From an uncultured Bacilli bacterium (GTDB lineage Bacteria; Bacillota_I; Bacilli_A; RFN20; CAG-449), in NCBI GenBank assembly GCA_947626895.1, contig CANQTY010000001.1, forward strand, positions 2,477-66,476: a DNA stretch of 64,000 bases. Direction: 5' to 3'. The notes beneath the pieces were generated by a model. It made no database searches, had not been told where the DNA came from, and saw nothing but the letters and a program-made list of their open reading frames with translations. Every line of letters begins with the position of its first letter. Position 1 is the first letter of the stretch. Made by a program: the position numbers and the translations under genes. Positions 6,783 through 61,417 of the stretch are shown here, piece after piece.

Positions 6783-9700
6783 ATGGCATATTTTCCATTA
6801 AATGTTCAAACTGGATATACCTTTTTATCAAGTGCTTTAAAAATTCCCTCCTATGTAAAAAAAGGAAAAGAATTAGGATTTACGCATCTAGGAATATCGG
6901 ATATTAACCCTTATGCTTATAAAGAATTTGAAACATTTTCAAAAAAGGAAAACATCATTCCTATCTTTGGCATTCGTATTTCTTTTTATTTTCATAATCA
7001 ATTAAGAAATATTCATTTATATATCGAAAGTGAAGAAGGTTATCTTTCTTTATGTCATATCACTTCTTTAATTGATGAAGATATATATCTTGGTGATTTT
7101 TCAAATGTAAAAGGTTTAATTTGTATAGTACCTATGCTCACAAGTAACTTCTTTTTTAATGAAGAAGATGAAAAAGAACGTATGCGAATGCTTATGGAAC
7201 TAAAAAGCTTTTTTTCTTCCTTTTACATCGGTACAGAGTGTTATACAAAAGAAGATATTGAAAAATTAAATGAAATCTATGCTTTATGTGATCAATATGA
7301 TTTTAAAACAGTCGCCTTTTCTAAAACCTTATGTTTAAAAAAAGAAGATGGTTTAACTTTAGATATTTTAGAAGCCATCAAAAACGATACAAAACTATCT
7401 GATTATGAAGAAAAGTCTACCCCATATTTTCTTTTAAGTGAAACTTCATGTAGAAAAATCTATCGTGAAAAAGATTTTTTATTTTTTATAGAACATGATT
7501 TTTCTTCTTTTACACTTCAAAAAAAGCGTGGTGAACTTTATAAAATACAAAATATCGATGATAAAAAAGAAAAGATTTATGAATTAGCTAAAACATTTTT
7601 AAGTAAAAACAATAAATGGAATGAGCTATATGAAAAACGTTTAAATTATGAATTGGATGTCATCTCTAAAATGGGATATTTAGATTACTTTTTAATCGTT
7701 TCAGATTATGTAAATTATGCAAAAAATCATGGTATTTTAGTAGGTCCTGGAAGGGGTTCTGCTTCTGGATCACTTGTAAGTTATGCTTTATCAATTACAG
7801 AGGCTGATCCTCTTAAATATGATTTACTTTTTGAAAGATTTTTAAATCCTGAACGAATTTCTATGCCTGATATTGATGTAGACTTTATCGATTATCACCG
7901 TGAAGATATCATAGCATATATATCCTCGCATTATGGTGAAGATAAGGTATCTAAAATTATTGCCTTCCAAACCTTTGGGCCAAAACAAGCTATCCAAGAT
8001 ATAGGAAGAGTATTTTCTTTTAATCCAAGTGATATAAAATTATTATCAAATAGCATTGATTCCCAACAAAAAACCTTTTTAGATGCATATAAATTTTCTC
8101 CATCTTTTAAAGAACTTGTTCAAGATGAACATTATAAATTAATTGCCTCTCTTGCTAGACGTATTGAGGGATTACCTCGTCAAAAAGGGCTTCATGCTTC
8201 AGGAATTATTATCAATAATAAACCTTTAAAAGATGTTTTACCAATGTTCGGAAAGAATTCACCTGCTCCATATGAAGGAAATTATCTAGAAGAACTTGGC
8301 TTTTTAAAGATGGATATATTAGGAATAAGAAATTTAACAATTATTGAAAATGTTTTAAATCGAATAAATCAAAAAGATTTAAAACTAGAAAATATTCCTT
8401 TAGATGATAAAAAAACTTTAGAAATTTTAAATAATGGTTTAACTAAAGGAATCTTCCAACTTGAAGGGGATGGAATCACCGATAGTCTAAAAGAAATAGG
8501 CGTGGATTCCTTTAATGATATCATTGCCATCAATGCCTTATATCGTCCAGGACCAATGGAGCATATCTCCCATTATGCCAAAAGAAAAAAACATCTTGAA
8601 AAAATTCCTTATATTGATTCTCGATTAGAACCAATTTTAAAAGAAACCTATGGCATTATTGTCTATCAAGAACAAATCATGCGTATTGTTCAAGATGTCG
8701 CTTCTTTTTCTCTTGGAAAAGCCGATATTTTAAGAAGAGCCATTTCTAAAAAGAGCCTAGATTTACTTGTCTCTTTAAAAAAAGATTTTATAGATGGTGC
8801 CAAAGCAAATGGCCTAAATGAAAAAAACGCTAATAAAATTTATGACTATATATTAGAATTTGCAAATTATGGTTTTAATAAATCTCATAGTGTTTCATAT
8901 GCCCTATTTTCCTATCGTATGGCATATTTAAAAAGTCATTTTCCAAAAGAATTTTTTAGTGCATTATTAGATATGCAAAAAAGCAGTCCAAATTATAGTC
9001 AATACACCAATGAATTAAGATATTTTTCTCTTGAAATATTACCCCCAGATATCAATTTAAGTGAACAAAATTTTAAAGTCGAAGAAAAAGGAATTCGTAT
9101 TCCTTTAAGTGCCATTAAGGGATTTTCATCCAATTTAGAAAAAGCCTTACTTGAAGAAAGAAAAAATGGTTCCTTTACATCCTTAAGTGATTTATTTTTA
9201 AGAAGTAAAGAAATGGGATTTAGTGAACAAAATTATCTTGCTTTAGTAAATGCAGGAGCCTTAGATATTTTTAAACTCAATCGTCAAACTTTAAGAAAAG
9301 CCGTTAAAACGTATATGTTATTTGCAAATAATATTGAAGGAATTAAGGATTTAACTCCTGAAGAAAGAAAATTAATGGAACCTAAAATCATTTCTTTAAA
9401 AGAAGATAATAAACTTAAATATCAATTGGAATTTGAAACGCTAGGTATCCTTTTATCAGGTTCTTTATTTTCCGAATATGAAAAATATTTTGCGCATTTA
9501 GAAATTCATAATATTGCTTATGCCTATAAAAATAAAGATCAATTAATGACGATACCTGCGGTGATTTCTTCTGTAAGAATTATTAAAACAAGAAATAAGG
9601 AAGATATGGAAATATTGCAAGTGTATGATGAAAAAGATCAAGTAAAGGTTGTAATTTTCCCTAAAATATATAAAACGATACCCTATATTGTAAAAGGGGA

Positions 9701-9794
9701 TGTAATATTAATTTCTGGAACATTAAAACAAGATGATAAAGGAACATCCTTTATCGCTAGTGAAATCATTAAAATGGAGGTAAAAGATGAATAG
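6783..9794 (+). CDS. dnaE: DNA polymerase III alpha subunit (DnaE-type, short form)
   Basis: N-terminal PHP domain; polymerase core motif GYLDYFLIV..YAK..GILVGPGRGSASGSLVSYALSITEADPL...FERFLNPERISMPDIDVDF; GAGGTG RBS; 8-nt overlap with polA. Confidence 0.9.
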   Translation: MAYFPLNVQTGYTFLSSALKIPSYVKKGKELGFTHLGISDINPYAYKEFETFSKKENIIPIFGIRISFYFHNQLRNIHLYIESEEGYLSLCHITSLIDEDIYLGDFSNVKGLICIVPMLTSNFFFNEEDEKERMRMLMELKSFFSSFYIGTECYTKEDIEKLNEIYALCDQYDFKTVAFSKTLCLKKEDGLTLDILEAIKNDTKLSDYEEKSTPYFLLSETSCRKIYREKDFLFFIEHDFSSFTLQKKRGELYKIQNIDDKKEKIYELAKTFLSKNNKWNELYEKRLNYELDVISKMGYLDYFLIVSDYVNYAKNHGILVGPGRGSASGSLVSYALSITEADPLKYDLLFERFLNPERISMPDIDVDFIDYHREDIIAYISSHYGEDKVSKIIAFQTFGPKQAIQDIGRVFSFNPSDIKLLSNSIDSQQKTFLDAYKFSPSFKELVQDEHYKLIASLARRIEGLPRQKGLHASGIIINNKPLKDVLPMFGKNSPAPYEGNYLEELGFLKMDILGIRNLTIIENVLNRINQKDLKLENIPLDDKKTLEILNNGLTKGIFQLEGDGITDSLKEIGVDSFNDIIAINALYRPGPMEHISHYAKRKKHLEKIPYIDSRLEPILKETYGIIVYQEQIMRIVQDVASFSLGKADILRRAISKKSLDLLVSLKKDFIDGAKANGLNEKNANKIYDYILEFANYGFNKSHSVSYALFSYRMAYLKSHFPKEFFSALLDMQKSSPNYSQYTNELRYFSLEILPPDINLSEQNFKVEEKGIRIPLSAIKGFSSNLEKALLEERKNGSFTSLSDLFLRSKEMGFSEQNYLALVNAGALDIFKLNRQTLRKAVKTYMLFANNIEGIKDLTPEERKLMEPKIISLKEDNKLKYQLEFETLGILLSGSLFSEYEKYFAHLEIHNIAYAYKNKDQLMTIPAVISSVRIIKTRNKEDMEILQVYDEKDQVKVVIFPKIYKTIPYIVKGDVILISGTLKQDDKGTSFIASEIIKMEVKDE

Positions 9795-12393
9795 AATCAT
9801 TGTTGTCGATGGAAACTCATTACTTTTTAGAGCGTATTATGCAACTTTTTATCAAAGTGCTGGAACCATTATGCAAACAAAAGATGGAATTCCTACAAAT
9901 GCCATCTACGCATTTTCCAATATGATGTCTAAATTAGTATCTACTTTAAAAGATAAGGATTGTTTCTTTGTTTCTTTTGATACAGGTGAAAAAACATTTC
10001 GTCATGATGCATTAGCTACCTATAAAGCTCAAAGAAAACCCATTGAAGAATCATTAAAAATACAACTTCCCATTGCTCGAGAATTATTAAAAGCCATGAA
10101 TATTCCTTATTTTGAACTTGTTGGTCATGAAGGGGATGATATTGCAGGTACGGTAGCAAAAAAAGCTGCCGCGAAGGGATATCAAGTAGAAATCGTCACT
10201 TCGGATAAAGATTTCCTTCAACTAATCGATGATCATATTGAAGTTCATTTAATCAAAAAAGGGCTTCAGGATCCAGAGATTATGAATGAAACAACTTTAA
10301 AAGAGAAGATGGGATTAACACCACAGCAAATTCCCGATTATAAGGGCTTAGTTGGTGATTCTAGTGATAATTTAAAAGGAATCGATGGAATTGGTGATAA
10401 AACCGCGGTTAAATTATTAACTCAATATGGAACTCTAGAAAATATTATTGAAGCTTTAAAAGATGATTCTTCTAAACTTGCTGAAAAAATTCGTAAGGGA
10501 AAAGAAGAAGGATTACTTTGCAAACAAATTGCAACAATTGAACTAGATGTTCCTATTCCTTTTGAAATCGAAGAATTAGAATACATGGGATATGATTTTG
10601 ATGAATTATCTTCATTTTATACAAAATATGAATTCTCTTCTTTATTGAAAAAATTGAAAGTCACTGATAAGCGTATTAAAAAAGAAAAAAAGAAAGATGA
10701 TGAAATTGAATTAGAAAAAATCTATATTAATTCCTTTAATGAACTACCATCAACTTTTGATGTATTAATCGCAGATATTGAAGGAAGTAATTATCGTAAT
10801 ATTCTTTTAAGAGGATTTATCTTTGCTAAAGAAACAAAATGTTATTATTTACCCTACAATGCTAAAGATGCAGATTTAATCAGTTATCTAGAAGATGACA
10901 ATAGAAAAAAAGATACCTTTGATGCTAAATCTCTTGCCTTAGCTCTTAAAAAAGATCATATCGAACTTAAAGGAGTACGTTTTGATTTATTACTTGCTTC
11001 ATACCTTCTTAAATCATCCATTAAACAAGATCCGATTAGCATTTATGCTTATTTTGGTTATAACATTTTATCATCTGGAGAAATCAATTTATTTGAACCT
11101 GATCCAAAATTCTTCTTTATGGCTAGCTATTTAGAAAAAATTAAAATAGAATGTTTAGATAAATTACAAGATATCTCATGCTTATCCTTATATAATGACG
11201 TGGAACTTCCCTTATCTTTTGTTCTTGCAGACATGGAAAATGAGGGATTCCCATTAGATGCTTCAACTCTTTCTTCAATCAATGCACGTTATCAAGAAAA
11301 ATTAGATCAAATTAGTGAAGAAATTATGGAGCTTGCTGGAGATAAAACCTTAAATATTTCTTCCCCAAAACAAATCGCAGACTTATTATTTAACAAATTA
11401 AATTTACCCAATAATAAAAAATCATCGACTTCTATTGAGGTATTACAATCATTAAAAGATTTACATCCTATCGTAAATTTGATTATAGAGCACCGCAAAT
11501 ACTCGAAATTAGTTTCAACTTATTCTTCAGGATTAAGCGAATATATTCTTGAAGATCAAAAAATTCATGCTTCCTTTAATCAAGCCTTAACCACCACTGG
11601 AAGATTATCTTCATCCGAACCTAATTTACAAAATATTTCAGTGAGAAGTGAAGAAGGAAAAGAAATTAGAAAAGCTTTCTTTTATAAAGAAGAAGATATC
11701 GAACTTCTCTCTTTAGATTATTCACAAATCGAACTAAGAATTTTAGCATCCTTAAGTAATTGTACTCCTTTAATTGAAGCCTTTAAGAATAATGAAGATA
11801 TTCATGAACAAACCGCAAGAAAAATCTTTTCTATCCCTGATAATGAAAAAGTACCAACTGATTTAAGAAGAAAAGCAAAAACGATTAATTTTGGTATCGT
11901 TTATGGTATTTCCGATTGGGGACTATCAGAACAATTAGAAATTTCAGTTCCAGAATCCAAACGAATTATCACACGTTTTTATGAACATTATCCTGAAATC
12001 AAAAACTATTTTGATGGGGTAATCAATTTTGCTAAAAATAATGGTTATGTTGAAACACTTTTCCATCGCAGAAGATATATACCTGAACTACAATCAGATA
12101 ATTATCAAACACGAGAATTCGGTAAACGTGCAGCGATGAATGCTCCAATACAAGGTACCGCTGCTGATTTAATTAAAATTGCTATGGTAAAAATCTATAA
12201 TTTATTAAAAGATAAGCATTATAAAAGTAAAATTGTTTTACAAATTCACGATGAATTAATCTTAAAAGTTTACCAAGATGAAAAAGAACAAATCTTTCAA
12301 TTAGTAAAAGAAACCATGGAAAATGCTTATCTTTTTGCTTGTCCATTAAACGCAAATGGATCTAGTGCTAAAACATGGTATGATGCCAAGTAG
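9787..12393 (+). CDS. polA: DNA polymerase I (5'-3' exonuclease + polymerase A domain)
   Basis: N-terminal FEN-like 5'-3' exo motifs (VVDGNSLLFRAYYA; GDSSDNLKGIDGIGDKTAVKLL); C-terminal family-A motifs (RRKAKTINFGIVYGIS; LQIHDELIL). Confidence 0.9.
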   Translation: MNRIIVVDGNSLLFRAYYATFYQSAGTIMQTKDGIPTNAIYAFSNMMSKLVSTLKDKDCFFVSFDTGEKTFRHDALATYKAQRKPIEESLKIQLPIARELLKAMNIPYFELVGHEGDDIAGTVAKKAAAKGYQVEIVTSDKDFLQLIDDHIEVHLIKKGLQDPEIMNETTLKEKMGLTPQQIPDYKGLVGDSSDNLKGIDGIGDKTAVKLLTQYGTLENIIEALKDDSSKLAEKIRKGKEEGLLCKQIATIELDVPIPFEIEELEYMGYDFDELSSFYTKYEFSSLLKKLKVTDKRIKKEKKKDDEIELEKIYINSFNELPSTFDVLIADIEGSNYRNILLRGFIFAKETKCYYLPYNAKDADLISYLEDDNRKKDTFDAKSLALALKKDHIELKGVRFDLLLASYLLKSSIKQDPISIYAYFGYNILSSGEINLFEPDPKFFFMASYLEKIKIECLDKLQDISCLSLYNDVELPLSFVLADMENEGFPLDASTLSSINARYQEKLDQISEEIMELAGDKTLNISSPKQIADLLFNKLNLPNNKKSSTSIEVLQSLKDLHPIVNLIIEHRKYSKLVSTYSSGLSEYILEDQKIHASFNQALTTTGRLSSSEPNLQNISVRSEEGKEIRKAFFYKEEDIELLSLDYSQIELRILASLSNCTPLIEAFKNNEDIHEQTARKIFSIPDNEKVPTDLRRKAKTINFGIVYGISDWGLSEQLEISVPESKRIITRFYEHYPEIKNYFDGVINFAKNNGYVETLFHRRRYIPELQSDNYQTREFGKRAAMNAPIQGTAADLIKIAMVKIYNLLKDKHYKSKIVLQIHDELILKVYQDEKEQIFQLVKETMENAYLFACPLNANGSSAKTWYDAK

Positions 12394-12401
12394 GTGAATT
12401 T

Positions 12402-13799
12402 ATGCCTGAATTACCAGAAGTTGAAACCGTAAGAAGAATTTTAAATACTTGTGTACAAAATAAAAGAATACAGGATGTTTTAATTTACGATGATCATATG
12501 GCAAAAAATTCTAAATATCCTTTAAACGTTTTAAAAGGTGAAAAAATACATGTCGTTGACCGCAAGGGAAAATATTTAATTTTTCGTTTAGATCACTATC
12601 TTTTGATTTCACATCTACGGATGGAAGGAAAATATTATTATCACGAAAAAAGAGTTGAAAATGCACCCCATACCCGCATTATCTTCTGTTTTGATGATGG
12701 TACATATCTATATTATGATGACTCTAGACGATTTGGTACGATGGATGTTTATTTAATTGATGAAGAAAATAATATTCCTTCTATATCCTCTTTAGGAAAA
12801 GAACCATTTCAGTTAACTAAAGAAGAACTATATAACGATTTTAAGAGTCATCATTTAGAAATCAAATCAATGTTATTATGTCAAAATATCATCGCAGGAA
12901 TAGGAAATATTTATGCTGATGAAATTCTCTTTGAAAGTAAAATATCCCCTTTTAAAATGTGTGATACTTTAACTTTAAATGAAGTAGATGTTATTCTAGA
13001 AAATGCCAAAAAAATCTTATTAAAAGCCATTGATTTAGGTGGTTCAACCATTAGAAGTTATCATCCTTCTGAAGGAATCGATGGACTATTCCAAGAAGAA
13101 TTAAAAGCTTATGGAAAAGAAAATAAACCATGCATTCATTGTAATACTTTAATGAGATGCCACATGTTACACGGAAGAAGTGTTACTTATTGTCCGACGT
13201 GCCAAAATGTAGCAAAAGTTGTTGCTATTTATGGAAAAATAGCATCAGGTAAATCAACCGTCTTAAATTATTTATCATCACTAGGCTATAAAACCTTTTC
13301 CGCGGATAAGGAAGTGAATGACTTATATAAAAAAGATTTTCATTTAAAAGCATTTTGTATCCATCTTTTTGGTGAAGCTTGTCTAACACGATTTGGCACA
13401 ATTAACAAAAACGTTATCAAAAAACTTATTGTTAATGATGAAAATAAAAAAATTGAATTAGAAAATTATATTCATCCATTAGTGAAAAAAAGACTGATTT
13501 CCTTTATTAAGAATAATATCTATGAAAAAGTGATATTTATTGAAATACCTTTATTATTCGAAGCTAAATGGGATGATTTAGCGGATGAAATCCTAGGAAT
13601 TGATATTCCCTTAGATTTACAAATCACCCATTTAAAAAAACGTAAATCTAAAAATATTTCAAGGGATTTAGCCCTTAATTCATCTTTAAAATTTAATAAG
13701 AATTTAGCAAAATGTAATGATATTATCGTAAATGATGGTTCATTAGATGAATTATATCAAAAAGTCGATACATATCTTAATATGATTCTACGTAAGTAG
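12402..13799 (+). CDS. mutM: fusion protein: formamidopyrimidine-DNA glycosylase (Fpg/MutM) N-terminal + dephospho-CoA kinase (CoaE) C-terminal
   Basis: MPELPEVETVRR Fpg N-terminus with catalytic Pro2/Glu3; H2TH; zinc finger CIHC...CPTCQ at about aa 245-270; four residues later a CoaE P-loop VVAIYGKIASGKSTV runs to aa 465 with no stop between. Confidence 0.8.
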   Translation: MPELPEVETVRRILNTCVQNKRIQDVLIYDDHMAKNSKYPLNVLKGEKIHVVDRKGKYLIFRLDHYLLISHLRMEGKYYYHEKRVENAPHTRIIFCFDDGTYLYYDDSRRFGTMDVYLIDEENNIPSISSLGKEPFQLTKEELYNDFKSHHLEIKSMLLCQNIIAGIGNIYADEILFESKISPFKMCDTLTLNEVDVILENAKKILLKAIDLGGSTIRSYHPSEGIDGLFQEELKAYGKENKPCIHCNTLMRCHMLHGRSVTYCPTCQNVAKVVAIYGKIASGKSTVLNYLSSLGYKTFSADKEVNDLYKKDFHLKAFCIHLFGEACLTRFGTINKNVIKKLIVNDENKKIELENYIHPLVKKRLISFIKNNIYEKVIFIEIPLLFEAKWDDLADEILGIDIPLDLQITHLKKRKSKNISRDLALNSSLKFNKNLAKCNDIIVNDGSLDELYQKVDTYLNMILRK

Positions 13800-14094
13800 G
13801 TAAAAAGATAAAAAACGTATAGGAAATTTCTTTTGTTGAAAGAAAAACAAATCGTCTAATATCTTTTTTTAAAGTACATATCAAATGATTTTCTCCTTCT
13901 TTTAAATCATAAGAGATTTTTTCTTTTAATAATTCCTGCTTTAAAAAAGATGAAAATTCATTACTCTTATCATAGGATTCACGAATTTCATCCTCAAAAC
14001 GATAAAAAGACTTCAAAGTCATATCTTCATTTTGCACATCATGAAGAAATAAAAAATACGTTATAAATACGATGAAAAGAAGAATCCGTTTCAT
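13777..14094 (-). CDS. small secreted/membrane-anchored hypothetical protein
   Basis: probable start at internal Met (MKRILLFIVFITYFLF signal peptide), giving a 4-nt coupling overlap with the upstream gene; the ORF-track start at 14139 is less likely. Confidence 0.4.
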   Translation of the reverse strand: MKRILLFIVFITYFLFLHDVQNEDMTLKSFYRFEDEIRESYDKSNEFSSFLKQELLKEKISYDLKEGENHLICTLKKDIRRFVFLSTKEISYTFFIFLPTYVESY

Positions 14095-15110
14095 AAAAAA
14101 TACACCCCATATAGATAAAATAAGAAGAAAGCGACACAAAGTATAAAAGGGTAAAATGAAATAGATTCTTCCTTTCTAAGGATTGGTTGATATTCATAAG
14201 TTATTCTTGTGTCTTTTAAAGCACTTGAAATCATTAATATTTTTTCTTTGTCTTCTTCATCATAAGATGAAAATGCTTCTTGAAGAGCTTTTCCTGATCC
14301 TTCAATAAAAAGTAACTTTCTTTCTAACATTGTTTCACCAAAGTTTTTTAGTAATTTACACGCATTTTCAAATGCTTCATAAGGTTTTAAAACCTGTCCG
14401 TAGCAGGTGAAATATAAAAAGAATTGATTCATTTTCTTATCTTCTTTTTTCTTTGTTAGATATAAAATAACAAGAAAACCACTAGTTAAAGCAAAACTGA
14501 AATATAGAACGCCAATAAACGATTGAAATATTTCTAAAACATAAGAATTTTGTGCCATTAGTAATAAAAAGGCATATTGCACAATATAAATTAGATGGAT
14601 GAATTGCAAATTTTTTTCATACGTTTCTTCACTTTCTATCGGAAATAAATAATCCACAACTTTTTTTAATGCATTAAAACTTTTCGCATTTTGTAAAGCA
14701 AATAATAAGATTTCAAATGAATCAAATGGATAAAGCGTTCTTAATCTTGCCATTACTTCTTCAAGAGTGTCAGCTTTTGCCTTTGGTTCTGCAGCAATAA
14801 AGGCATCACGTAATGTTTCACTTTTCCAATAAAAAAGCATTTGATGAGCTAATAATTTTAATCTAATTTGTTTTTGAATATCTTTAATCTTAGGAAGACA
14901 ATAAAAATAAAATAATAAGCTTTCCATCAATAGATATAAAATTGTTAAAATCAAAGAAATAATCATTGATTTTGAAAGAGTCTCTATAAAAAAGAAAAGT
15001 AAAATTCCCTTTATAATTATCTCTATAATGTATGTAAAGTACCCCTCAGGTGGATTCTTTCGTTTAGGTTTCTTCTGGTGTAAGAAACGGAAATGAAAAC
15101 TTCTTGGCAT
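14091..15110 (-). CDS. polytopic integral membrane protein, unknown function
   Basis: several hydrophobic spans (about 7 predicted TM segments); start ambiguous, possibly an internal Met; no family recognised. Confidence 0.4.
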   Translation of the reverse strand: MPRSFHFRFLHQKKPKRKNPPEGYFTYIIEIIIKGILLFFFIETLSKSMIISLILTILYLLMESLLFYFYCLPKIKDIQKQIRLKLLAHQMLFYWKSETLRDAFIAAEPKAKADTLEEVMARLRTLYPFDSFEILLFALQNAKSFNALKKVVDYLFPIESEETYEKNLQFIHLIYIVQYAFLLLMAQNSYVLEIFQSFIGVLYFSFALTSGFLVILYLTKKKEDKKMNQFFLYFTCYGQVLKPYEAFENACKLLKNFGETMLERKLLFIEGSGKALQEAFSSYDEEDKEKILMISSALKDTRITYEYQPILRKEESISFYPFILCVAFFLFYLYGVYFL

Positions 15111-15388
15111 AATTCCTCCTTTATTTGTTCATAATGAATATTCACTTTTAATGAATCCAAAGCATATAGATTTTTGATTTCATGTAAGTAGTATGTAAGA
15201 TTATTTTCAAAGACATCTTGAACAAAATTGTAGTCCTCTTCTTTAAAGACGCTTTGATTTAATGAATATTCGAAAACTTCCGAAATTTCCTTTTTTAAAA
15301 ACTCTTTATCTATATATGAAGTTGTTACTTCAGAAAATGCCGAACAAAATAGCATAAAACAAATGCTAAATAGATAATATTTTTTCAT
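15023..15388 (-). CDS. small secreted hypothetical protein
   Basis: signal peptide MKKYYLFSICFMLFCSAFS; 121 aa. Confidence 0.45.
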   Translation of the reverse strand: MKKYYLFSICFMLFCSAFSEVTTSYIDKEFLKKEISEVFEYSLNQSVFKEEDYNFVQDVFENNLTYYLHEIKNLYALDSLKVNIHYEQIKEELCQEVFISVSYTRRNLNERIHLRGTLHTL

Positions 15389-16205
15389 ATGTTTCTATTT
15401 CCTTTTCACTGATTTCAATTTGATAAGAAGAGGAAAAATCTTCATTGATTTTAATGGTCTTAGGAAAATGAAATATATTTTTTCCTATTCCAATATTCAC
15501 TTCATAATTAAGTTCACCTTGGAAATATTTTCTTGGAAGAAATATATCCTTTTCATCTCCTTTTCCATCATAAATTAGTTCCCCATTTAATGAATAAGAA
15601 TATCCCGTTTCTAAAGAAAAAGTATAAATGTTCTCATTTTGATAACTATCTAAATGAAATAAGTATCCTTCTTCATAGGGTAAATGAGGAAAAATAAGTT
15701 TTGACGTATAAATTTTTAAATCACAATAGACTATATCTTTCCCTTGATAAAGAATTGTTCCAAATAAATCACGTGGGAACTTAAGTAAAGATAAATATTC
15801 CTCGATATTTGGAAAAATAAATTCAACATGATCTAAGCAACGATTCACACAATAACAATTACTCATTAAAGAAGAAACATAATATCCTAAATCGTATTCA
15901 TCCTCAATATCATAAAGATGAGTTCTATTCCTTGTATTGGTAATCTTTACTTTCGTATAAGCTAGCTCTGATTTAATGGTTATATAAAAATCATTTGTTA
16001 AATCCTCTAAAGGAATCTTTAAAATAGAAGAATCTGTATCTAATGATTCTTGGTTTAATTCATAACCAATTATTTTACCAACATTAGATGTTACATTTAG
16101 TAACAAAGAGGAGTCTTTGATTTCACTAGCTTCAACAATATAATCAGAAGATGGAATAGATAATAAGGACAATATGCATAAGCTTACCATTATTCCATTA
16201 AACAT
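15366..16205 (-). CDS. secreted hypothetical protein
   Basis: N-terminal signal peptide MVSLCILSLLSIPSS; Tyr/Asn/Glu-rich; no recognisable family. Confidence 0.45.
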   Translation of the reverse strand: MFNGIMVSLCILSLLSIPSSDYIVEASEIKDSSLLLNVTSNVGKIIGYELNQESLDTDSSILKIPLEDLTNDFYITIKSELAYTKVKITNTRNRTHLYDIEDEYDLGYYVSSLMSNCYCVNRCLDHVEFIFPNIEEYLSLLKFPRDLFGTILYQGKDIVYCDLKIYTSKLIFPHLPYEEGYLFHLDSYQNENIYTFSLETGYSYSLNGELIYDGKGDEKDIFLPRKYFQGELNYEVNIGIGKNIFHFPKTIKINEDFSSSYQIEISEKEIETYEKILSI

Positions 16206-16549
16206 AGAAATTCCTCGATGGCTTTTTTCCTAAGACGATAGAATGTCGAACGCGTGTAATAACGCATCCACCAAAACTTTTCAACCTGGAAGAAAAATTC
16301 TTTCCATAGTAACATTGCTTTTCTTCTTTCTAAACATGATAGACTAAAATTAACTCTAGCTAAATATTTAGCGTTTTCATTGTTACTTTGCTGCGATTTC
16401 AGATATAAATGCCTGTTTTCATACTTAGGATCAAAAAGCAATGGTTGCTCTCCATTATTACAATAAGGATCATTCATACAAATAGCTAAGCACCTTTTGT
16501 AGCGGACCACATAAGCCCTAATTTTATTTTCTCTATCTTTATTCGTCAT
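16190..16549 (-). CDS. small sigma-70 region-4-like HTH regulator (ArpU/RinA/DUF1492-like phage-type activator)
   Basis: C-terminal TRSTFYRLRKKAIEEF matches the sigma-70 region 4.2 recognition helix; real start at internal Met MTNKDRENK (ATG 16547-16549) with GGAGGT RBS 8 nt upstream; the 5' part of the 150-aa ORF is translated promoter DNA. Confidence 0.55.
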   Translation of the reverse strand: MTNKDRENKIRAYVVRYKRCLAICMNDPYCNNGEQPLLFDPKYENRHLYLKSQQSNNENAKYLARVNFSLSCLERRKAMLLWKEFFFQVEKFWWMRYYTRSTFYRLRKKAIEEFLCLME

Positions 16550-16769
16550 AGACAAATACCTCCATGAAATCAAAAAAACATATTTTTTGTAAAAGGTAAA
16601 GAGTTTTTTAAAAAAGCGTAAAAATGTTACTTTTTGTCTCATTTTCGTCCCATTTTGGTGTCATTTTGTTGCACCAGAATCTCATTTTTCATTTTTTTGC
16701 TCTTGTCATCAAATTTCTTGATTTTGTATAAGATAAAAATTATACTTACTTTAATCTTAAAAGGAGTCT

Positions 16770-17750
16770 ATGATGAAGAAGTTTGTTGCTTTATTAATTC
16801 CATTTTTATTCTTAGGAGTCAGCTGTGAAAAAGAAAATAATCATAAAATTATTTCTTATTTCCATGAAGATTTAACTTCTCTAATTTATGTTAATCAAAA
16901 TGAAGTAAAGACTTTAGCTAGTAATCAAGAAGATTTTATTTTATTTGTCTTTTCCGATTGTGGTTGCGGAGGCCATGGCGATAGTGTTTTTTCAACTTTA
17001 AAAACTTATATTAGTGAAACTCATCGTTTAATATACGCTATTGGGGATACGGATTATAAAAAACTTGATGTTACATTAAGTGACACTTTTCCTTTATATC
17101 CGACAAATCAAATGGATGAAATCAATAAAATTCCTGCTTTTTATTTTTATCATGGTGGAAAATTAACTTATGAACGTTATTATGAAGAAAGTTTGCTTAC
17201 AGTAAAAGGAATAACCTCGTTGATGAATGATTATATGACCCCATATGGCATGAATATTATTAATGATATTGTTCCTTATACTTTTAAAGGATATGATTTT
17301 TTTAAATTTAACGAAGAAACTACAACAAAATTAGATCAAAAAATTCAAGGAAATAACACAATTTACTATTCTTGGAAACAATGTGGAGATTGTCGTTCTT
17401 TGAAAGGAATTTTAAGAGATTATTATCTAGATCATAATACTTTATTATATATGTATGAAGTAGATTACTTTAGAAATAGTGACAATAAAGAAACATTATG
17501 GGATAATGAAGAAGGATTCCCCTATCAATATCAATTTGCTAACTATCGAGGAGGGAAAGTACCAAGTCTAGTCACTTATGAAAATGGTTTAAAAAAAGAT
17601 ATGATTGTTTATCATAATGATGTCGTTAATGATGGAACAATTGAAACATCTTTCTTTAATGAACTTGTTGGACAAAAATTAAGTGCAGAAGAACAAGAAA
17701 ACTATCATAAGGAAAAAGTACTAGAATACTTATCATCATTAAAGGAGTAA
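16770..17750 (+). CDS. lipoprotein with thioredoxin-like CxxC motif(s)
   Basis: lipobox LFLGVSC|E; SWKQCGDCRSL (Trx-like CxxC) and an earlier FSDCGCGGHG motif; possible tandem Trx-like domains. Confidence 0.45.
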   Translation: MMKKFVALLIPFLFLGVSCEKENNHKIISYFHEDLTSLIYVNQNEVKTLASNQEDFILFVFSDCGCGGHGDSVFSTLKTYISETHRLIYAIGDTDYKKLDVTLSDTFPLYPTNQMDEINKIPAFYFYHGGKLTYERYYEESLLTVKGITSLMNDYMTPYGMNIINDIVPYTFKGYDFFKFNEETTTKLDQKIQGNNTIYYSWKQCGDCRSLKGILRDYYLDHNTLLYMYEVDYFRNSDNKETLWDNEEGFPYQYQFANYRGGKVPSLVTYENGLKKDMIVYHNDVVNDGTIETSFFNELVGQKLSAEEQENYHKEKVLEYLSSLKE

Positions 17751-17752
17751 CA

Positions 17753-18538
17753 ATGAAAAAAGAAGATTTAGATTCTCAATATGGATTATATAAAACCATC
17801 GATTTATTGAAAGACACTCGAGTTAATGTCTTTTGTAAAGCAGGTGGAGGTTTTATCTTTTTTACCTTATTTGTCATTGGCTTTTTTATTGATAATATGA
17901 ATCTTTTATTCCCATTTTCTCAAGGATATTTATTATTTGTACAATATTTATCCTTAATTGTTGGCTTTATTTTATACGCTTTTTTGCATGAACTTATTCA
18001 TTTTTTAATGGCAAGAATTATGAAAATTCATGCTAAAATGAAACCCGCGGGATTATTTCCTTATTGCACCATTGAAGAAGAACTTTTAAGTAAGAAACAA
18101 TATATACTTTTTGCTTTAATGCCTTTTATTTCATTAACCACTTTATTAATTCCTAGTGTGATTTTAGTAAAAATATTTGCTCCTAATTGGTTTTGGTTAC
18201 CTTATATTCTTTTGATGCAAGATGCAGCGACATCCGTCGGTGATTTTGTCGCTATCTTTTATATTAAACGTTACAAAAAATGTTATATAGAAGATAATGA
18301 TGCTCAACTATTAATCTATGTAAAAATGGATGAATTTAAAGAATATCATGATAGTGAAAAAGCCTATTATGAAAAGAAAATGTTAAAGAAAATTAAAAAG
18401 AAAAAAAGAAAAGAACAGCTTAAAAATGCTCCTCTAATGGGTAAAAAGAAATATGAAGAAAGCTTAAAAGAAAAAGGAACTCCTTTAGAGGATACTGACG
18501 CTCAAGATATCGATGATCTTTCTAAATTAGATATGTAA
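17753..18538 (+). CDS. membrane protein with HExxH motif (DUF3267-like putative zincin peptidase), Lys-rich C-terminal tail
   Basis: LHELIHFLMARIM (HExxH) embedded between TM segments; C-terminal KKIKKKKRKEQLK low-complexity. Confidence 0.45.
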   Translation: MKKEDLDSQYGLYKTIDLLKDTRVNVFCKAGGGFIFFTLFVIGFFIDNMNLLFPFSQGYLLFVQYLSLIVGFILYAFLHELIHFLMARIMKIHAKMKPAGLFPYCTIEEELLSKKQYILFALMPFISLTTLLIPSVILVKIFAPNWFWLPYILLMQDAATSVGDFVAIFYIKRYKKCYIEDNDAQLLIYVKMDEFKEYHDSEKAYYEKKMLKKIKKKKRKEQLKNAPLMGKKKYEESLKEKGTPLEDTDAQDIDDLSKLDM

Positions 18539-18552
18539 AAAACTAGGTCGCC

Positions 18553-19005
18553 CTAGTTTTTATTTTGTAACTCTAAATATTTTTTCCATAGCTTTGCTTT
18601 CTTCATGTGATTCATGGAAAAGGCATCTTCATAATAGAAATAGATTTTTCCTTTCTTTTCTTTTAAAAATCTTGATGAAATATAGGAAGATAAATCGATG
18701 ACAAGTTCTGCATGTGGAGCAATTTCAATACTTCCCTCTTCTGTATATGAAGGATGCGCTAAGGGAATATGATAAGGATAAACGACTAAACCATAGTTTT
18801 TAATATACGTTTCTTTACCTTTAGAGTTTCTTATGGAAATCAAATAATGAATTTTATTTTGATAAATATCTGTGTCGATTTGTTCTTCAATGACTAATCG
18901 ACTTCTTTTCATGAAGCGAATGAGTAAAATCAATAAGAACAAGAACAAGAAAAGTCCAGCGACACTAAGCACGATAATTAATATAGACATTGCATTTTTT
19001 GACAT
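18553..19005 (-). CDS. small single-pass membrane protein, possible partner of the adjacent Abi gene
   Basis: probable start MSKNAMSILIIVLSVAGLFLFLFLLILLI (one TM) with AGGGG RBS; the ORF-track start at 19050 lacks an RBS. Confidence 0.4.
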   Translation of the reverse strand: MSKNAMSILIIVLSVAGLFLFLFLLILLIRFMKRSRLVIEEQIDTDIYQNKIHYLISIRNSKGKETYIKNYGLVVYPYHIPLAHPSYTEEGSIEIAPHAELVIDLSSYISSRFLKEKKGKIYFYYEDAFSMNHMKKAKLWKKYLELQNKN

Positions 19006-19128
19006 AAATACCCCTATCTCAGTATGAATCAAAATGAAAAAATTATTCAAACTGAGATAGGGGTAAATTATTAAGATAAATTAATAAAGATTTTATTTAA
19101 CCAAATGCTTTTCATAAAGCATTATATT

Positions 19129-20139
19129 CTAATTAAATAAATCTTCTTCATCATTAGAATAATAATTAGAGATGATATGATCAAAATATTCATAGATGGA
19201 TTTTAGTAAGAGATTATTTACATAATATTCCTTATGAAGGGGAATCCTTTTGTAAAATAAATAGTTGATGCGATTATTGACGCAGCGCTTTACACCTTTA
19301 TTTTTAACTAAAATATTAAATAAATATAAAGTGCTAGTGATTTGTCTTATCGCCGAATTTGCTAGCTTATGTTGTCTTGTTTCTTTAGAAACACCACATT
19401 CAATTAAAAAAGTATTAATTAAAAAATTTGGTGTCCTTTTCACATCTTTCTTATGAAGAATAGATAAGATACAAACACTATGTGCTAAAGCATTTCTAAG
19501 CTTATGGACATCCATCAAGATTGGAATATATTTATGATCTTCTAGATGATAATAAGTGGTAAGAAAATCAAAAAAGTTAATCAGTTCTCCAAAAGATAGA
19601 ATCTTTAAAAATTTACCCAAAGGAAAATTTGTGATTTTTCTTCCACTATCTAGGTTATATTTCAAAAATATATCTTCATAATATACATCATTTTTCTTAG
19701 ACATGATGGAATTATGAATTCTTTTAGGAAACCTAGAATCGTAATAATCTTGATCTAAGAATAAATTTACGATGTTTAATCCATCTTCACCCGGAATTTT
19801 TGACACGAGATTTTTTATTCTTAATTTAAGATTCTCTTCGATTTCGTTTGTCATTTTTTGAAGCAATTCCCTAACTAAAGAATCGACAAGGGATAAATCC
19901 TTTAAATAGGCAAAATCTACATCCATGAATTTTCCTTTAAATTCTCCATTTGGATAAAGTACAAAATTGTGACGATAAGAAACAACCGTATCATAATCTT
20001 TACTCGTCTTCAAAAAATATTCTGCTTCTTGCTCATTACAAAGCTCAAATTTAATATTTTTGCTTTTTAAATAATTAATCACTTCAAAAATATTCAATTC
20101 AGACTCTATAGTTGCAGTAGCAATATTTCCATTCATCAT
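19129..20139 (-). CDS. Abi_2-family (AbiD/AbiF-like) abortive infection protein
   Basis: 336 aa; LSFGELINFF and VHKLRNALAHSVCIL match the Abi_2 family hallmarks (sFG.l motif; R-N-x-x-A-H motif). Confidence 0.6.
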   Translation of the reverse strand: MMNGNIATATIESELNIFEVINYLKSKNIKFELCNEQEAEYFLKTSKDYDTVVSYRHNFVLYPNGEFKGKFMDVDFAYLKDLSLVDSLVRELLQKMTNEIEENLKLRIKNLVSKIPGEDGLNIVNLFLDQDYYDSRFPKRIHNSIMSKKNDVYYEDIFLKYNLDSGRKITNFPLGKFLKILSFGELINFFDFLTTYYHLEDHKYIPILMDVHKLRNALAHSVCILSILHKKDVKRTPNFLINTFLIECGVSKETRQHKLANSAIRQITSTLYLFNILVKNKGVKRCVNNRINYLFYKRIPLHKEYYVNNLLLKSIYEYFDHIISNYYSNDEEDLFN

Positions 20140-20372
20140 TTCACCTCCTTTGCTAATTTATTGCTTTTGACAATTTTAAGTGATCTTTTAACACATGTTT
20201 CTTGTTTCATTCATACTCCTTTCTTTCGCTAGATAGCGAATCAAAAACAAATGTTATGTCATAACACCCTCTATATATTAAATAGAGAATTCGTAAAAAA
20301 AATTGTCAAAAAAAATTAAAAAAATTTTTCAAAGGGTAAAAATTTATCTTTTCATAGAAAATTGCTTCTAGT

Positions 20373-20397
20373 AAAAAAGAGGGATTTCTCCCTCCCT
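20373..20397 (-). terminator. rho-independent terminator downstream of uxaC
   Basis: minus strand GGAGGGAGAAATCCCTC followed by TTTTTT. Confidence 0.7.
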
Positions 20398-20422
20398 TAT
20401 AGCTTTTTATTGAAATGTTTTT

Positions 20423-21841
20423 TTACTTTAATGTTTTAAAAGTGTTTTTAGCGTTATTAAAGCAAATATCCTCAACTACTTGACCAACAAAATCTAAATC
20501 ACATGGATATTCTCCATTTTCAATTAAATGACCAAGTAAGTTACAAAGAGTTCTTCTAAAGTATTCATGACGTGTATAAGATAAGAATGAACGAGAATCG
20601 GTTAACATACCAACAAATTTAGAAAGTAAGCCAGCATTCATATACGCTTTTAATTGACGTTCCATACCATCTTTTTGATCATTAAACCACCAGCCTGAAC
20701 CAAATTGAATCTTGCCAACGACTCCACCTTGCTGGAAGCAATTCTTTAATGTTGCAAGTACTTCATTATCACGTGGATTTAAGCAATATAGAATCGTTCT
20801 TGGAAGCTCATCTGTTTCATCTAAAGCACCGAGCAATTTAGCAAGTTTGCTTGCAAAGGGTTGATCTTCTGTCGCGTCAAAACCCGTATCTGGACCAATA
20901 AGTTTATACATTCTTTTAGAATTATTTCTTAAAGCACCGATATGATATTGTTGAACCCAATTATATTTATGATATTGTTTTCCTAAATAGACTAAAACAT
21001 ATCCTTTATATTGATTGAGTTCTTTTTCACTTAAAGTCTCTTTGTTTAAGACTTTTTTAAAGATTTTTTCTACTTCTTCTTTACTTGCATCTTCATACAT
21101 GACAACATCTAAAGCATGATCAGAAATCGCTGCGCCGTGCTTATCAAAATAAGCGATTCTTTCATCAAGAGCGAGTAAAAATTCATCTAAAGAATCAATT
21201 TTCTTTCCATGGAGTTCTTCTAAGCGTGCAAACCATGGGAAGAATGTATCTAATTCAACATTTAAGGCTTTATCAGGACGGAAAGCAGGACATACCTTGG
21301 TTTTAAAAGATGTGTCTTTAGCGATTAATTCATGATAATGTAAATCATCGATTGGATCATCCGTGGTATAAATGACTGCGACATTATTCATTTCAATCAT
21401 CTTTCTTGCAGTTAAAGTCTCTAACTTTTGATTCGCTTTATCATAGATTTCTTTCGCAGTTTTAGGATTTAATAAAGTATCAATTCCAAAATATCTTTGT
21501 AATTCTAGATGCGACCAATGATAAATTGGATTACCAATTGCGTAAGGCATCATTTCTGCGAATTTTTCATATTTTTCATAATCGGAAGCATCACCAGTGA
21601 TGTATTTTTCTTCAACACCAAACTCACGCATTAAACGCCATTTATAATGGTCTCCATAGTGATCTTGACCTCCTCCAATCCAAACTTCTTCTAAAGAGCG
21701 ATACTTTTTATCTTCATAGATTTCTTTAGGAGAAAGATGACAATGGAAATCAAAAATCGGCATCTTTTCAGCATGCTCATGGTATAGTTTTTTGGCTGTT
21801 TCAGTTTCTAATAAAAAATCTTTGTCTAAAAATGGTTTCAT
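20423..21841 (-). CDS. uxaC: uronate (glucuronate/galacturonate) isomerase
   Basis: MKPFLDKDFLLETETAKKLYHEHAEKMPIFDFHCHL is a canonical UxaC N-terminus; 472 aa. Confidence 0.9.
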   Translation of the reverse strand: MKPFLDKDFLLETETAKKLYHEHAEKMPIFDFHCHLSPKEIYEDKKYRSLEEVWIGGGQDHYGDHYKWRLMREFGVEEKYITGDASDYEKYEKFAEMMPYAIGNPIYHWSHLELQRYFGIDTLLNPKTAKEIYDKANQKLETLTARKMIEMNNVAVIYTTDDPIDDLHYHELIAKDTSFKTKVCPAFRPDKALNVELDTFFPWFARLEELHGKKIDSLDEFLLALDERIAYFDKHGAAISDHALDVVMYEDASKEEVEKIFKKVLNKETLSEKELNQYKGYVLVYLGKQYHKYNWVQQYHIGALRNNSKRMYKLIGPDTGFDATEDQPFASKLAKLLGALDETDELPRTILYCLNPRDNEVLATLKNCFQQGGVVGKIQFGSGWWFNDQKDGMERQLKAYMNAGLLSKFVGMLTDSRSFLSYTRHEYFRRTLCNLLGHLIENGEYPCDLDFVGQVVEDICFNNAKNTFKTLK

Positions 21842-61250: not shown

Positions 61251-61417
61251 CTCCCCGCAAATTCACTTTGCAGGGAGTTTCGTCTAGCAATTTATATTCC
61301 GCATGCTAGTAAGCGGAACTTTCGAGCCAGCCACTTAATGGTTCGCCTGCTGGGCAGCGAAATACTTAGCATCCCAGCCATTTGATTGTACGCGTGCTGG
61401 TCAGCGAAAAACTTTCT
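61251..61417 (-). ncRNA. type III antitoxin RNA, about 2.5 x 47-nt repeats plus terminator (locus 2)
   Basis: half repeat 61296-61321, full repeats from 61329 and 61376 nearly identical to locus 1; promoter TTGACA(61452-61447)-17-TAGTAT(61429-61424); terminator hairpin CTCCCTGCAAA-loop-TTTGCGGGGAG + TTTTAT (61251-61277). Confidence 0.6.

Follow-up and report, generated by a model that had tools for sequence, protein, structure and literature searches.

A stand-alone AbiD/AbiF-family HEPN toxin gene without the recognisable small-RNA cassette of its relatives

The gene at 19129-20139 on the minus strand of the window, by which we mean the whole 64-kb stretch of DNA that was analysed, belongs by its sequence to the AbiD/AbiF (Abi_2) family, as a stand-alone gene. 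As a divergent new member of an already known family, this copy is notable solely because its cognate RNA is absent or replaced. We favour, with moderate confidence, the reading of a HEPN RNase toxin of AbiF type that stands alone and would be checked by an RNA from its own flanks, with the neighbouring membrane protein uninvolved.

AbiF is a type III toxin-antitoxin system, in which a homodimer of the HEPN RNase is neutralised by directly binding a nearby small RNA (PMC12373285, PMC12737573, PMC13064643). Its structure, PDB 8VZ6, is that of PbAbiF-AbiFr from Prevotellaceae (Zilberzwige-Tal et al. 2025, as described in PMC12737573 and PMC12373285). The statement in the initial annotation that the mechanism of Abi_2 proteins is poorly understood is out of date in view of this work, which identifies AbiF as a HEPN RNase toxin with a non-coding RNA as antitoxin. 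Since the antitoxin of AbiF is a non-coding RNA, the partner to be expected next to an Abi_2 gene is an RNA and not a protein.

Results

The Abi_2 gene and its protein

19129..20139, minus strand: AbiD/AbiF-family (Abi_2, HEPN) toxin gene, 336 aa, ORF read from the sequence
19480..19497, minus strand: codons of the HEPN catalytic motif R215-N-A-L-A-H220 (R-phi-xxx-H), read from the sequence
18553..19005, minus strand: gene of a 150-aa N-terminally anchored single-pass membrane protein, ORF from ATG; a neighbour, not a defence component

Both reading frames described in the initial annotation, of 336 and 150 codons, are found on the minus strand, and the 336-aa protein carries the two signatures named there, SFGEL at residues 182-186 and RNALAHS at residues 215-221. 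Its assignment to the Abi_2 family holds as well. The Pfam profile PF07751 matches with an E-value of 6e-13 and 49.9 bits (gathering cut-off 25.6 bits) and covers profile positions 10-182 of 184. The same protein is matched by the AbiD profile of PADLOC (E 1.7e-11) and by PHROG 2158, ‘abortive infection resistance protein’ (E 2.8e-17).

In the R-phi-xxx-H motif, phi is N, H or D, and the equivalent arginine and histidine are needed for the toxicity of AbiFCd and the activity of PbAbiF (PMC12373285). R215 and H220 are invariant across an alignment of the window protein with 19 relatives (alignment A1, 20 sequences), and the window protein keeps every residue that is invariant in this alignment. 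Its predicted structure shows the AbiF/Cas13-like helical HEPN fold. PbAbiF (8VZ6) is reached from the 336-aa protein by fold comparison only; sequence searches of the PDB, whether started from the protein alone or from the family profile, failed to retrieve it. At 13% identity, PbAbiF lies beyond phmmer and profile searches.

The ORF is full length and intact and is preceded by a strong Shine-Dalgarno sequence (SD). The gene is carried by all five contigs of the species (the window, L001-L003 and L015), and in the four other contigs, which come from different samples, the ORF is 99.7-100% identical to the window copy. Intact and near-identical across contigs, the ORF looks maintained. The GC content at the locus is about 26%, close to that of the adjoining gene block.

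Relatives and origin of the gene

A search of 5.8 billion proteins returned 365 homologues of the 336-aa protein at E<=1e-3, with PF07751 present in every homologue among the matches listed, and an exhaustive search matched 880 cluster representatives. The nearest non-identical relatives share 42.6-57.4% identity (loci L016-L094); their source genomes, assembled from gut metagenomes, are labelled Bacilli, Tenericutes, Mycoplasma, Ca. Onthousia and Clostridium sp. CAG:710. Among the 5.8 billion proteins, no relative was found between about 56% and 99% identity, and the best relative in a search of 1.84 billion representatives has 46% identity. The Abi_2 genes of these gut Bacilli genomes resemble the window gene in length and in their shared invariant residues, and they are single-gene insertions in varied chromosomal contexts. 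What distinguishes them is an element of about 96 nt after the stop codon, consisting of promoter, small RNA and terminator, which the window copy does not have.

In a neighbour-joining tree rooted with RNA-bearing viral Abi_2 homologues as outgroup, the window protein branches off basally to the gut clade that bears the RNA, and its branch is long. It departs from its 19 relatives in alignment A1 at many positions that are at least 90% conserved; examples are IEHYLK to IEENLK, PIWEF to PLGKF and ILREVN to ILMDVH. A phage origin of the gene was considered and rejected, as viral contigs hold only relatives of 25-32% identity.

Genomic neighbourhood and the 150-aa membrane protein

20380..20397, minus strand: uxaC intrinsic terminator, ahead of the Abi_2 gene; hairpin plus T-run from the terminator scan, -13.2 kcal/mol
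18538..18561: bidirectional terminator from the terminator scan, common to the membrane-protein gene (minus strand) and the DUF3267 gene (plus strand)

Upstream of the Abi_2 gene, the same strand carries uxaC, uxaA and uxaB. The terminator that had been proposed to separate uxaC from the pair is present, and so is the proposed insertion beside the hexuronate operon: the Abi_2 gene sits exactly at a synteny break next to uxaC. On one side of this break, eight window genes (13777-19005) are collinear with positions 8001-13900 of the sister-species contig L009 at 29-61% identity (tblastn). This block comprises the membrane-protein gene, the DUF3267 gene, a gene for a 326-aa thioredoxin-like protein and five more lineage-specific ORFs. 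Abi_2, uxaC, uxaA and uxaB have no match in the L009 locus by tblastn. The Abi_2 gene is thus absent at the syntenic position of the sister species, where the whole left flank also differs. A search for flanking direct repeats at the window gene gave low-complexity A/T matches only, whereas many homologue loci do have such repeats.

The 150-aa protein has, as annotated, a single-pass membrane topology, with one hydrophobic segment at residues ~8-30 (Kyte-Doolittle maximum 3.26) and no second one. A start at a TTG further upstream, which would give 165 aa, is unlikely: the ATG has AGGGG ahead of it, and the homologue in the sister species begins at the corresponding position. No family match was found for the protein in Pfam, PADLOC or other collections. 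Among 5.8 billion proteins it has just two homologue clusters, one being a 99% copy and the other P0122 at 56% identity. P0122 is found in six sister-species contigs (L009-L014), where it is followed by the same genes as in the window, without Abi_2. A second gene of 151 codons in the sister-species locus was examined as a possible relative of the membrane protein and is unrelated to it (22% identity).

We also searched the neighbourhoods of 79 Abi_2 homologues, about 5 kb each and less where the contig ends. By tblastn, relatives of the 150-aa protein occur near 0 of the 79. The 128 genes that flank Abi_2 homologues at these loci fall into 90 clusters, and there is no recurrent small membrane protein among them. 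Because its homologue stands in a collinear block without Abi_2 and relatives are absent from the 79 Abi_2 loci, the membrane protein, as far as gene order and homology can tell, is the terminal gene of a lineage-conserved block and not an Abi_2 partner, as had been suggested. It is co-transcribed with Abi_2 at most by accident of position.

A conserved small-RNA cassette downstream of related Abi_2 genes

An all-against-all comparison of flanks revealed that the 3' flanks of Abi_2 homologues are conserved and the 5' flanks are not. The conserved 3' element is about 96 nt long and begins at or overlaps the Abi_2 stop codon. It starts with a promoter-like part (TTGACA, a 17-nt spacer, TGnTATAtT), continues with a short A/U helix (AAAAAUG ... 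CAUUUUU) and the linker UUUUGyAAGGG, and ends with a GC-rich hairpin followed by a U-run. The layout is that of a cassette of promoter, RNA of about 60 nt and terminator. By nhmmer, the element is present in 76 of the 79 homologue genome loci; in the remaining three, the gene is truncated or the locus is cut by the end of the contig.

The pairing of the element is supported by covariation. In alignment A3, in which a three-helix structure was scored over 40 distinct sequences, 92% of cells pair, compared to about 43% with the partners slid. Compensatory changes on both sides are seen for 12 pairs, and none of 500 shuffles attains the observed values. The many G-U pairs in this alignment fit an RNA on the strand of the Abi_2 gene. 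The first helix spans the promoter-like part and is specific to the gut clade; conservation of the linker and of the remaining two helices extends beyond this clade. Covariance models built from the relatives' 3' elements (R1 and R2) also hit five viral contigs immediately 3' of the Abi_2 gene (E 1e-7 to 3e-3); the Abi_2 proteins encoded there share 29-32% identity with the window protein. Further matches are found on plasmids of Vagococcus lutrae and Kurthia (E 1e-4 and 2e-3), with proteins of ~27% identity.

Rfam 15 has no family that matches this 3' element. The element may correspond to AbiFr, the RNA described by Zilberzwige-Tal et al., and we do not claim novelty for it. Unless it is covered by the models of those authors, the arrangement of abi_2 followed by promoter, small RNA and terminator would be an AbiF-associated RNA class located downstream and not upstream of the gene.

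The cassette is not recognised in the window

Over the whole 64-kb window, R1 applied without filters gave a best E-value of 0.17 at 61406, far from the Abi_2 locus. The best match of R2 over 17500-21500 reaches 14 bits and falls on the ordinary terminator of the DUF3267 and membrane-protein genes. In the same-species contigs L001 and L015, the R1/R2 element was not found either. A search of the whole window with Rfam at gathering thresholds yielded no abiF motif. At relaxed thresholds, the abiF motif RF03085 has no match at E<=1 over 18000-21000 and none at E<=10 on either flank, with the homologue, viral and plasmid loci equally matchless and no positive control among them. As the window protein is basal to an RNA-bearing clade that has an RNA-bearing viral outgroup, the simplest reading is that the RNA was lost in the window lineage or has diverged there beyond recognition.

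The 3' spacer of the window gene

19104..19123, minus strand: 8-bp hairpin just past the Abi_2 stop codon, weakly terminator-like by folding, -6.3 kcal/mol
19009..19065, minus strand: very stable hairpin of 15+5 bp with a 15-nt loop (inverted repeat I2), -30.1 kcal/mol

Between the Abi_2 stop codon and the membrane gene on the same strand lies a spacer of 123 nt. The long hairpin in this spacer occupies the position of the relatives' conserved 3' small RNA, and the SD (AGGGG) of the membrane gene falls within the 3' arm of this hairpin. The 3' intergenic region (146 nt folded) has a z-score of -5.8 relative to shuffles. There is no U-run beside the hairpin on either strand, so it is not a canonical terminator. 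No second copy was found within the window, its exact-arm pattern was not found in JGI metagenome contigs, and the hairpin is absent upstream of the sister-species homologue of the membrane gene. Rfam at E<=10 on the 3' flank gave only generic long-hairpin matches of miRNA type. We considered whether the hairpin is a diverged form of the family RNA; nothing convincing was seen by eye or with R1 and R2, and the hairpin is a long near-perfect duplex, unlike the three short helices of the family RNA. It may simply regulate the membrane gene by sequestering its SD.

The 5' leader of the window gene

20140..20379, minus strand: 5' intergenic leader of the Abi_2 gene, ~240 nt, with TTGACA (20304-20309), 17-nt spacer and TCTATT, two small hairpins, a U-tract and the SD AAGGAGGTGA
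20136..20210, minus strand: possible 24-codon uORF MKQETCVKRSLKIVKSNKLAKEVK with its own SD; its TGA overlaps the Abi_2 ATG (ATGA)

The leader is one candidate site of a regulatory or antitoxin RNA. Its fold has a z-score of -1.86, which is no better than shuffled sequence, and it has no Rfam match at E<=10 and no R1 or R2 match. The uORF, read from the letters alone, may be due to chance. A 24-nt similarity between the start of the uORF and the start of the DUF3267 gene (I1) was judged to be a chance likeness of ribosome-binding-site and start context.

Discussion

Based on the family, dimerisation, RNase activity, toxicity and triggering by phage are probably also properties of the window protein. 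By analogy it would act as a homodimer, probably with a composite R-phi-xxx-H active site formed by R215 and H220, and the toxin, once freed from inhibition, would cleave cellular RNA and cause growth arrest of the infected cell. In our working model, a non-coding region on one side of the gene itself would keep the toxin inactive. The leading antitoxin candidate is the unusually stable structured RNA at 19009-19123, where the family RNA normally sits. Next comes the ~240-nt 5' leader, positioned as the RNA is in the lactococcal and C. difficile systems.

Comparison with the known systems shows which parts of this arrangement are usual. AbiFCd and the window protein are both Abi_2 proteins with an RN..AH motif, RNQCAH in AbiFCd-RCd22 (PMC12373285) and RNALAH here, and in both genes a strong SD follows a long 5' untranslated region. 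The transcription start site of the C. difficile RNA lies 168 nt before the AbiFCd ATG (PMC12373285). RCd22 contains two RF03085 copies upstream of AbiFCd, whereas none is detectable at the window gene. AbiFCd is further located in a prophage lysis module, while the window gene is chromosomal and lies between a sugar-acid operon and a lineage-specific block. The lactococcal AbiD, AbiD1 and AbiF (PMC11381338, PMC13064643) belong to the same Pfam and PADLOC family and are single-protein Abi genes that need an RNA cassette; for AbiD1, AbiF and AbiD-like genes this is an adjacent short promoter-plus-terminator sequence (PMC11381338). These genes are plasmid-borne with the cassette upstream, in contrast to the chromosomal window gene without a recognisable cassette. 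Similarly, the window copy differs from PbAbiF-AbiFr in having no recognised cognate non-coding RNA. Compared to Cas13, the window gene encodes one small HEPN protein for which dimerisation would be necessary, and it comes with no CRISPR array and no sign of RNA guidance. AbiF is an RNA-neutralised toxin and the proposed ancestor of Cas13.

The two candidate flanks lead to different readings. In one, the layout is of the AbiD1/AbiF type, with the 5' leader supplying the antitoxin or regulatory RNA and an unrelated 3' hairpin that would regulate the membrane gene. The upstream position of the RNA, a short transcript with its own promoter and terminator, in L. lactis AbiD1/AbiF and in C. difficile AbiFCd (PMC12373285, PMC11381338) speaks for this layout, as do the promoter-like TTGACA-17-TCTATT sequence, the small hairpins and the U-tract of the ~240-nt leader. 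The weak fold of this leader and its failure to match RF03085 even at E<=10 argue against it. In addition, no 5' element is conserved among the closest relatives, in which the upstream gap is often only 30-70 nt. We regard the 5' layout as a tentative option and rather unlikely. Somewhat less likely still is that this AbiF lineage exchanged its ancestral 3' small-RNA antitoxin for the RNA at 19009-19123, or that the toxin persists without a dedicated antitoxin. If the exchange of the family RNA for the hairpin RNA were true, AbiF toxins can swap their RNA partners.

It is equally doubtful that the gene is an orphan or decaying toxin, which after the loss of its RNA antitoxin would be silent, attenuated or on the way to a pseudogene, with no current role in defence. 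Decay would account for a 3' small RNA that is found in the sister clade and the outgroups and is absent from the window, and it fits the long basal branch and the many substitutions at otherwise well conserved positions. It is at odds with a full-length ORF behind a strong SD, with the retention of all invariant residues including R215 and H220, and with near-identity of the gene in five independent contigs. Least probable by a wide distance is a two-gene system, with Abi_2 as the sensing or cleaving component and the membrane protein as its dedicated effector or antitoxin. The two genes lie on the same strand within 123 nt, with no consensus promoter or canonical terminator between them, which makes co-transcription plausible, and the missing family RNA leaves room for another antitoxin. 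The sole non-identical homologue of the membrane protein, however, belongs to the collinear eight-gene block of the sister species that has no Abi_2, and none of the 79 Abi_2 loci has a relative of it. The long hairpin moreover buries the SD of the membrane gene, which argues against coupled expression. Abi_2 with a membrane partner would have meant a new two-component defence system, and the evidence removes such a reading.

With an RNA-checked stand-alone toxin as the preferred reading, the locus represents not a new kind of system but a test case in an AT-rich gut bacterium that is related to uncultured genomes labelled ‘Bacilli’ or Tenericutes. As the catalytic residues are kept and the usual RNA is missing, it asks whether this RNA is indispensable, whether it can be replaced, and how the toxin is tolerated. 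For the relatives, the 3' small-RNA cassette with its covariation support is usable as an annotation aid for Abi_2 loci.

A conserved RNA element downstream of Abi_2 genes

Directly 3' of the Abi_2 genes, an element of ~96 nt is conserved in the homologues of gut Bacilli genomes (loci L016-L094), in the relatives on viral contigs (L095-L099) and in two more distant relatives (L101 and L103). This element is supported by covariation, and Rfam 15 contains no family that matches it. A promoter-like part (TTGACA-17-TGnTATAtT) comes first, followed by an A/U helix, a linker (UUUUGyAAGGG) and a terminator hairpin.

Examples of the 3' RNA element
L004 6002-6098
L046 6011-6108
L101 2409-2509
L103 2418-2512

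We conclude that the element probably serves as the cognate antitoxin RNA of AbiF. Its position downstream of the gene differs from that in the systems characterised in lactococci and C. difficile, where the RNA is encoded upstream. The stop codon of the Abi_2 ORF falls inside the element in several loci. Within the gut clade, the stretches that immediately follow the -35-like and the -10-like box covary with each other (helix 1, columns 4-11 with 28-35 of the element alignment A3, for example L004 6005-6036). Because these stretches covary and their pairs include G-U, the promoter-like part is predicted to double as an RNA helix in Abi_2 read-through transcripts.

In some homologue loci the element is present as two or three copies in tandem, an arrangement that recalls the repeat arrays of other type III antitoxins. 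L083 has one copy upstream of the Abi_2 gene as well.

RNA-element copies in multi-copy loci
L083 520-615, 1743-1838, 1854-1949
L080 1197-1293, 1631-1725, 3297-3395
L023 5990-6084, 6200-6295
L093 6006-6104, 6195-6293, 6353-6452

Two of the viral contigs also carry a Clostridiales-3 RNA (RF02942, 255 bits; L098 3103-3372 and L099 3858-4127), located downstream of the Abi_2 homologue, at a distance of ~500 nt from the gene and ~380 nt from its 3' RNA element.

Genomic sites and insertion of the cassette

The cassette of Abi_2 gene and RNA element follows pyruvate phosphate dikinase in 12 loci, and precedes the R subunit of a type I restriction enzyme in 6; in L004, ~220 nt separate it from two upstream tRNA genes (L004 4616-4781). 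Given these varied neighbours, the cassette therefore sits at many different chromosomal sites. In at least 15 homologue loci it is located between direct repeats of local host sequence, which are 88-100% identical and vary in length from 18 to 319 nt.

Direct repeats around the cassette (also present in L061, L092 and others)
L025 2039-2356 and 3576-3889
L032 4719-4920 and 6175-6377
L004 4859-4925 and 6165-6231

In L004 the repeated sequence corresponds to the 5' end of an ADP-ribosylglycohydrolase gene, of which a 33-codon fragment remains upstream of the cassette. The repeat-flanked cassettes look like single-crossover insertions of a fragment carrying host homology and not like target duplications of the transposase type. 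At the window Abi_2 locus we found no flanking direct repeat of the cassette type.

The window locus and its neighbours

The leader of the window Abi_2 gene contains a possible upstream ORF with its own SD (AAAGGAG) and a TGA stop overlapping the Abi_2 ATG.

20136-20210 (-), possible upstream ORF of 24 codons, basic product, MKQETCVKRSLKIVKSNKLAKEVK

Over the first 24 nt of this ORF region, which take in the SD, 21 of 24 positions agree with the beginning of the DUF3267 gene (17741-17764), a likeness that is probably due to chance.

Eight genes at 13777-19005 are collinear with L009 8001-13900 of the sister species, at 29-61% identity. They comprise the genes for the single-pass membrane protein, for the DUF3267 protein (a putative zincin peptidase) and for a thioredoxin-like protein of 326 aa whose N-terminus has a hydrophobic, signal- or lipoprotein-like segment, together with five ORFs without family. 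In the sister species, an additional, unrelated 151-aa multi-pass membrane gene is inserted after the membrane-protein gene.
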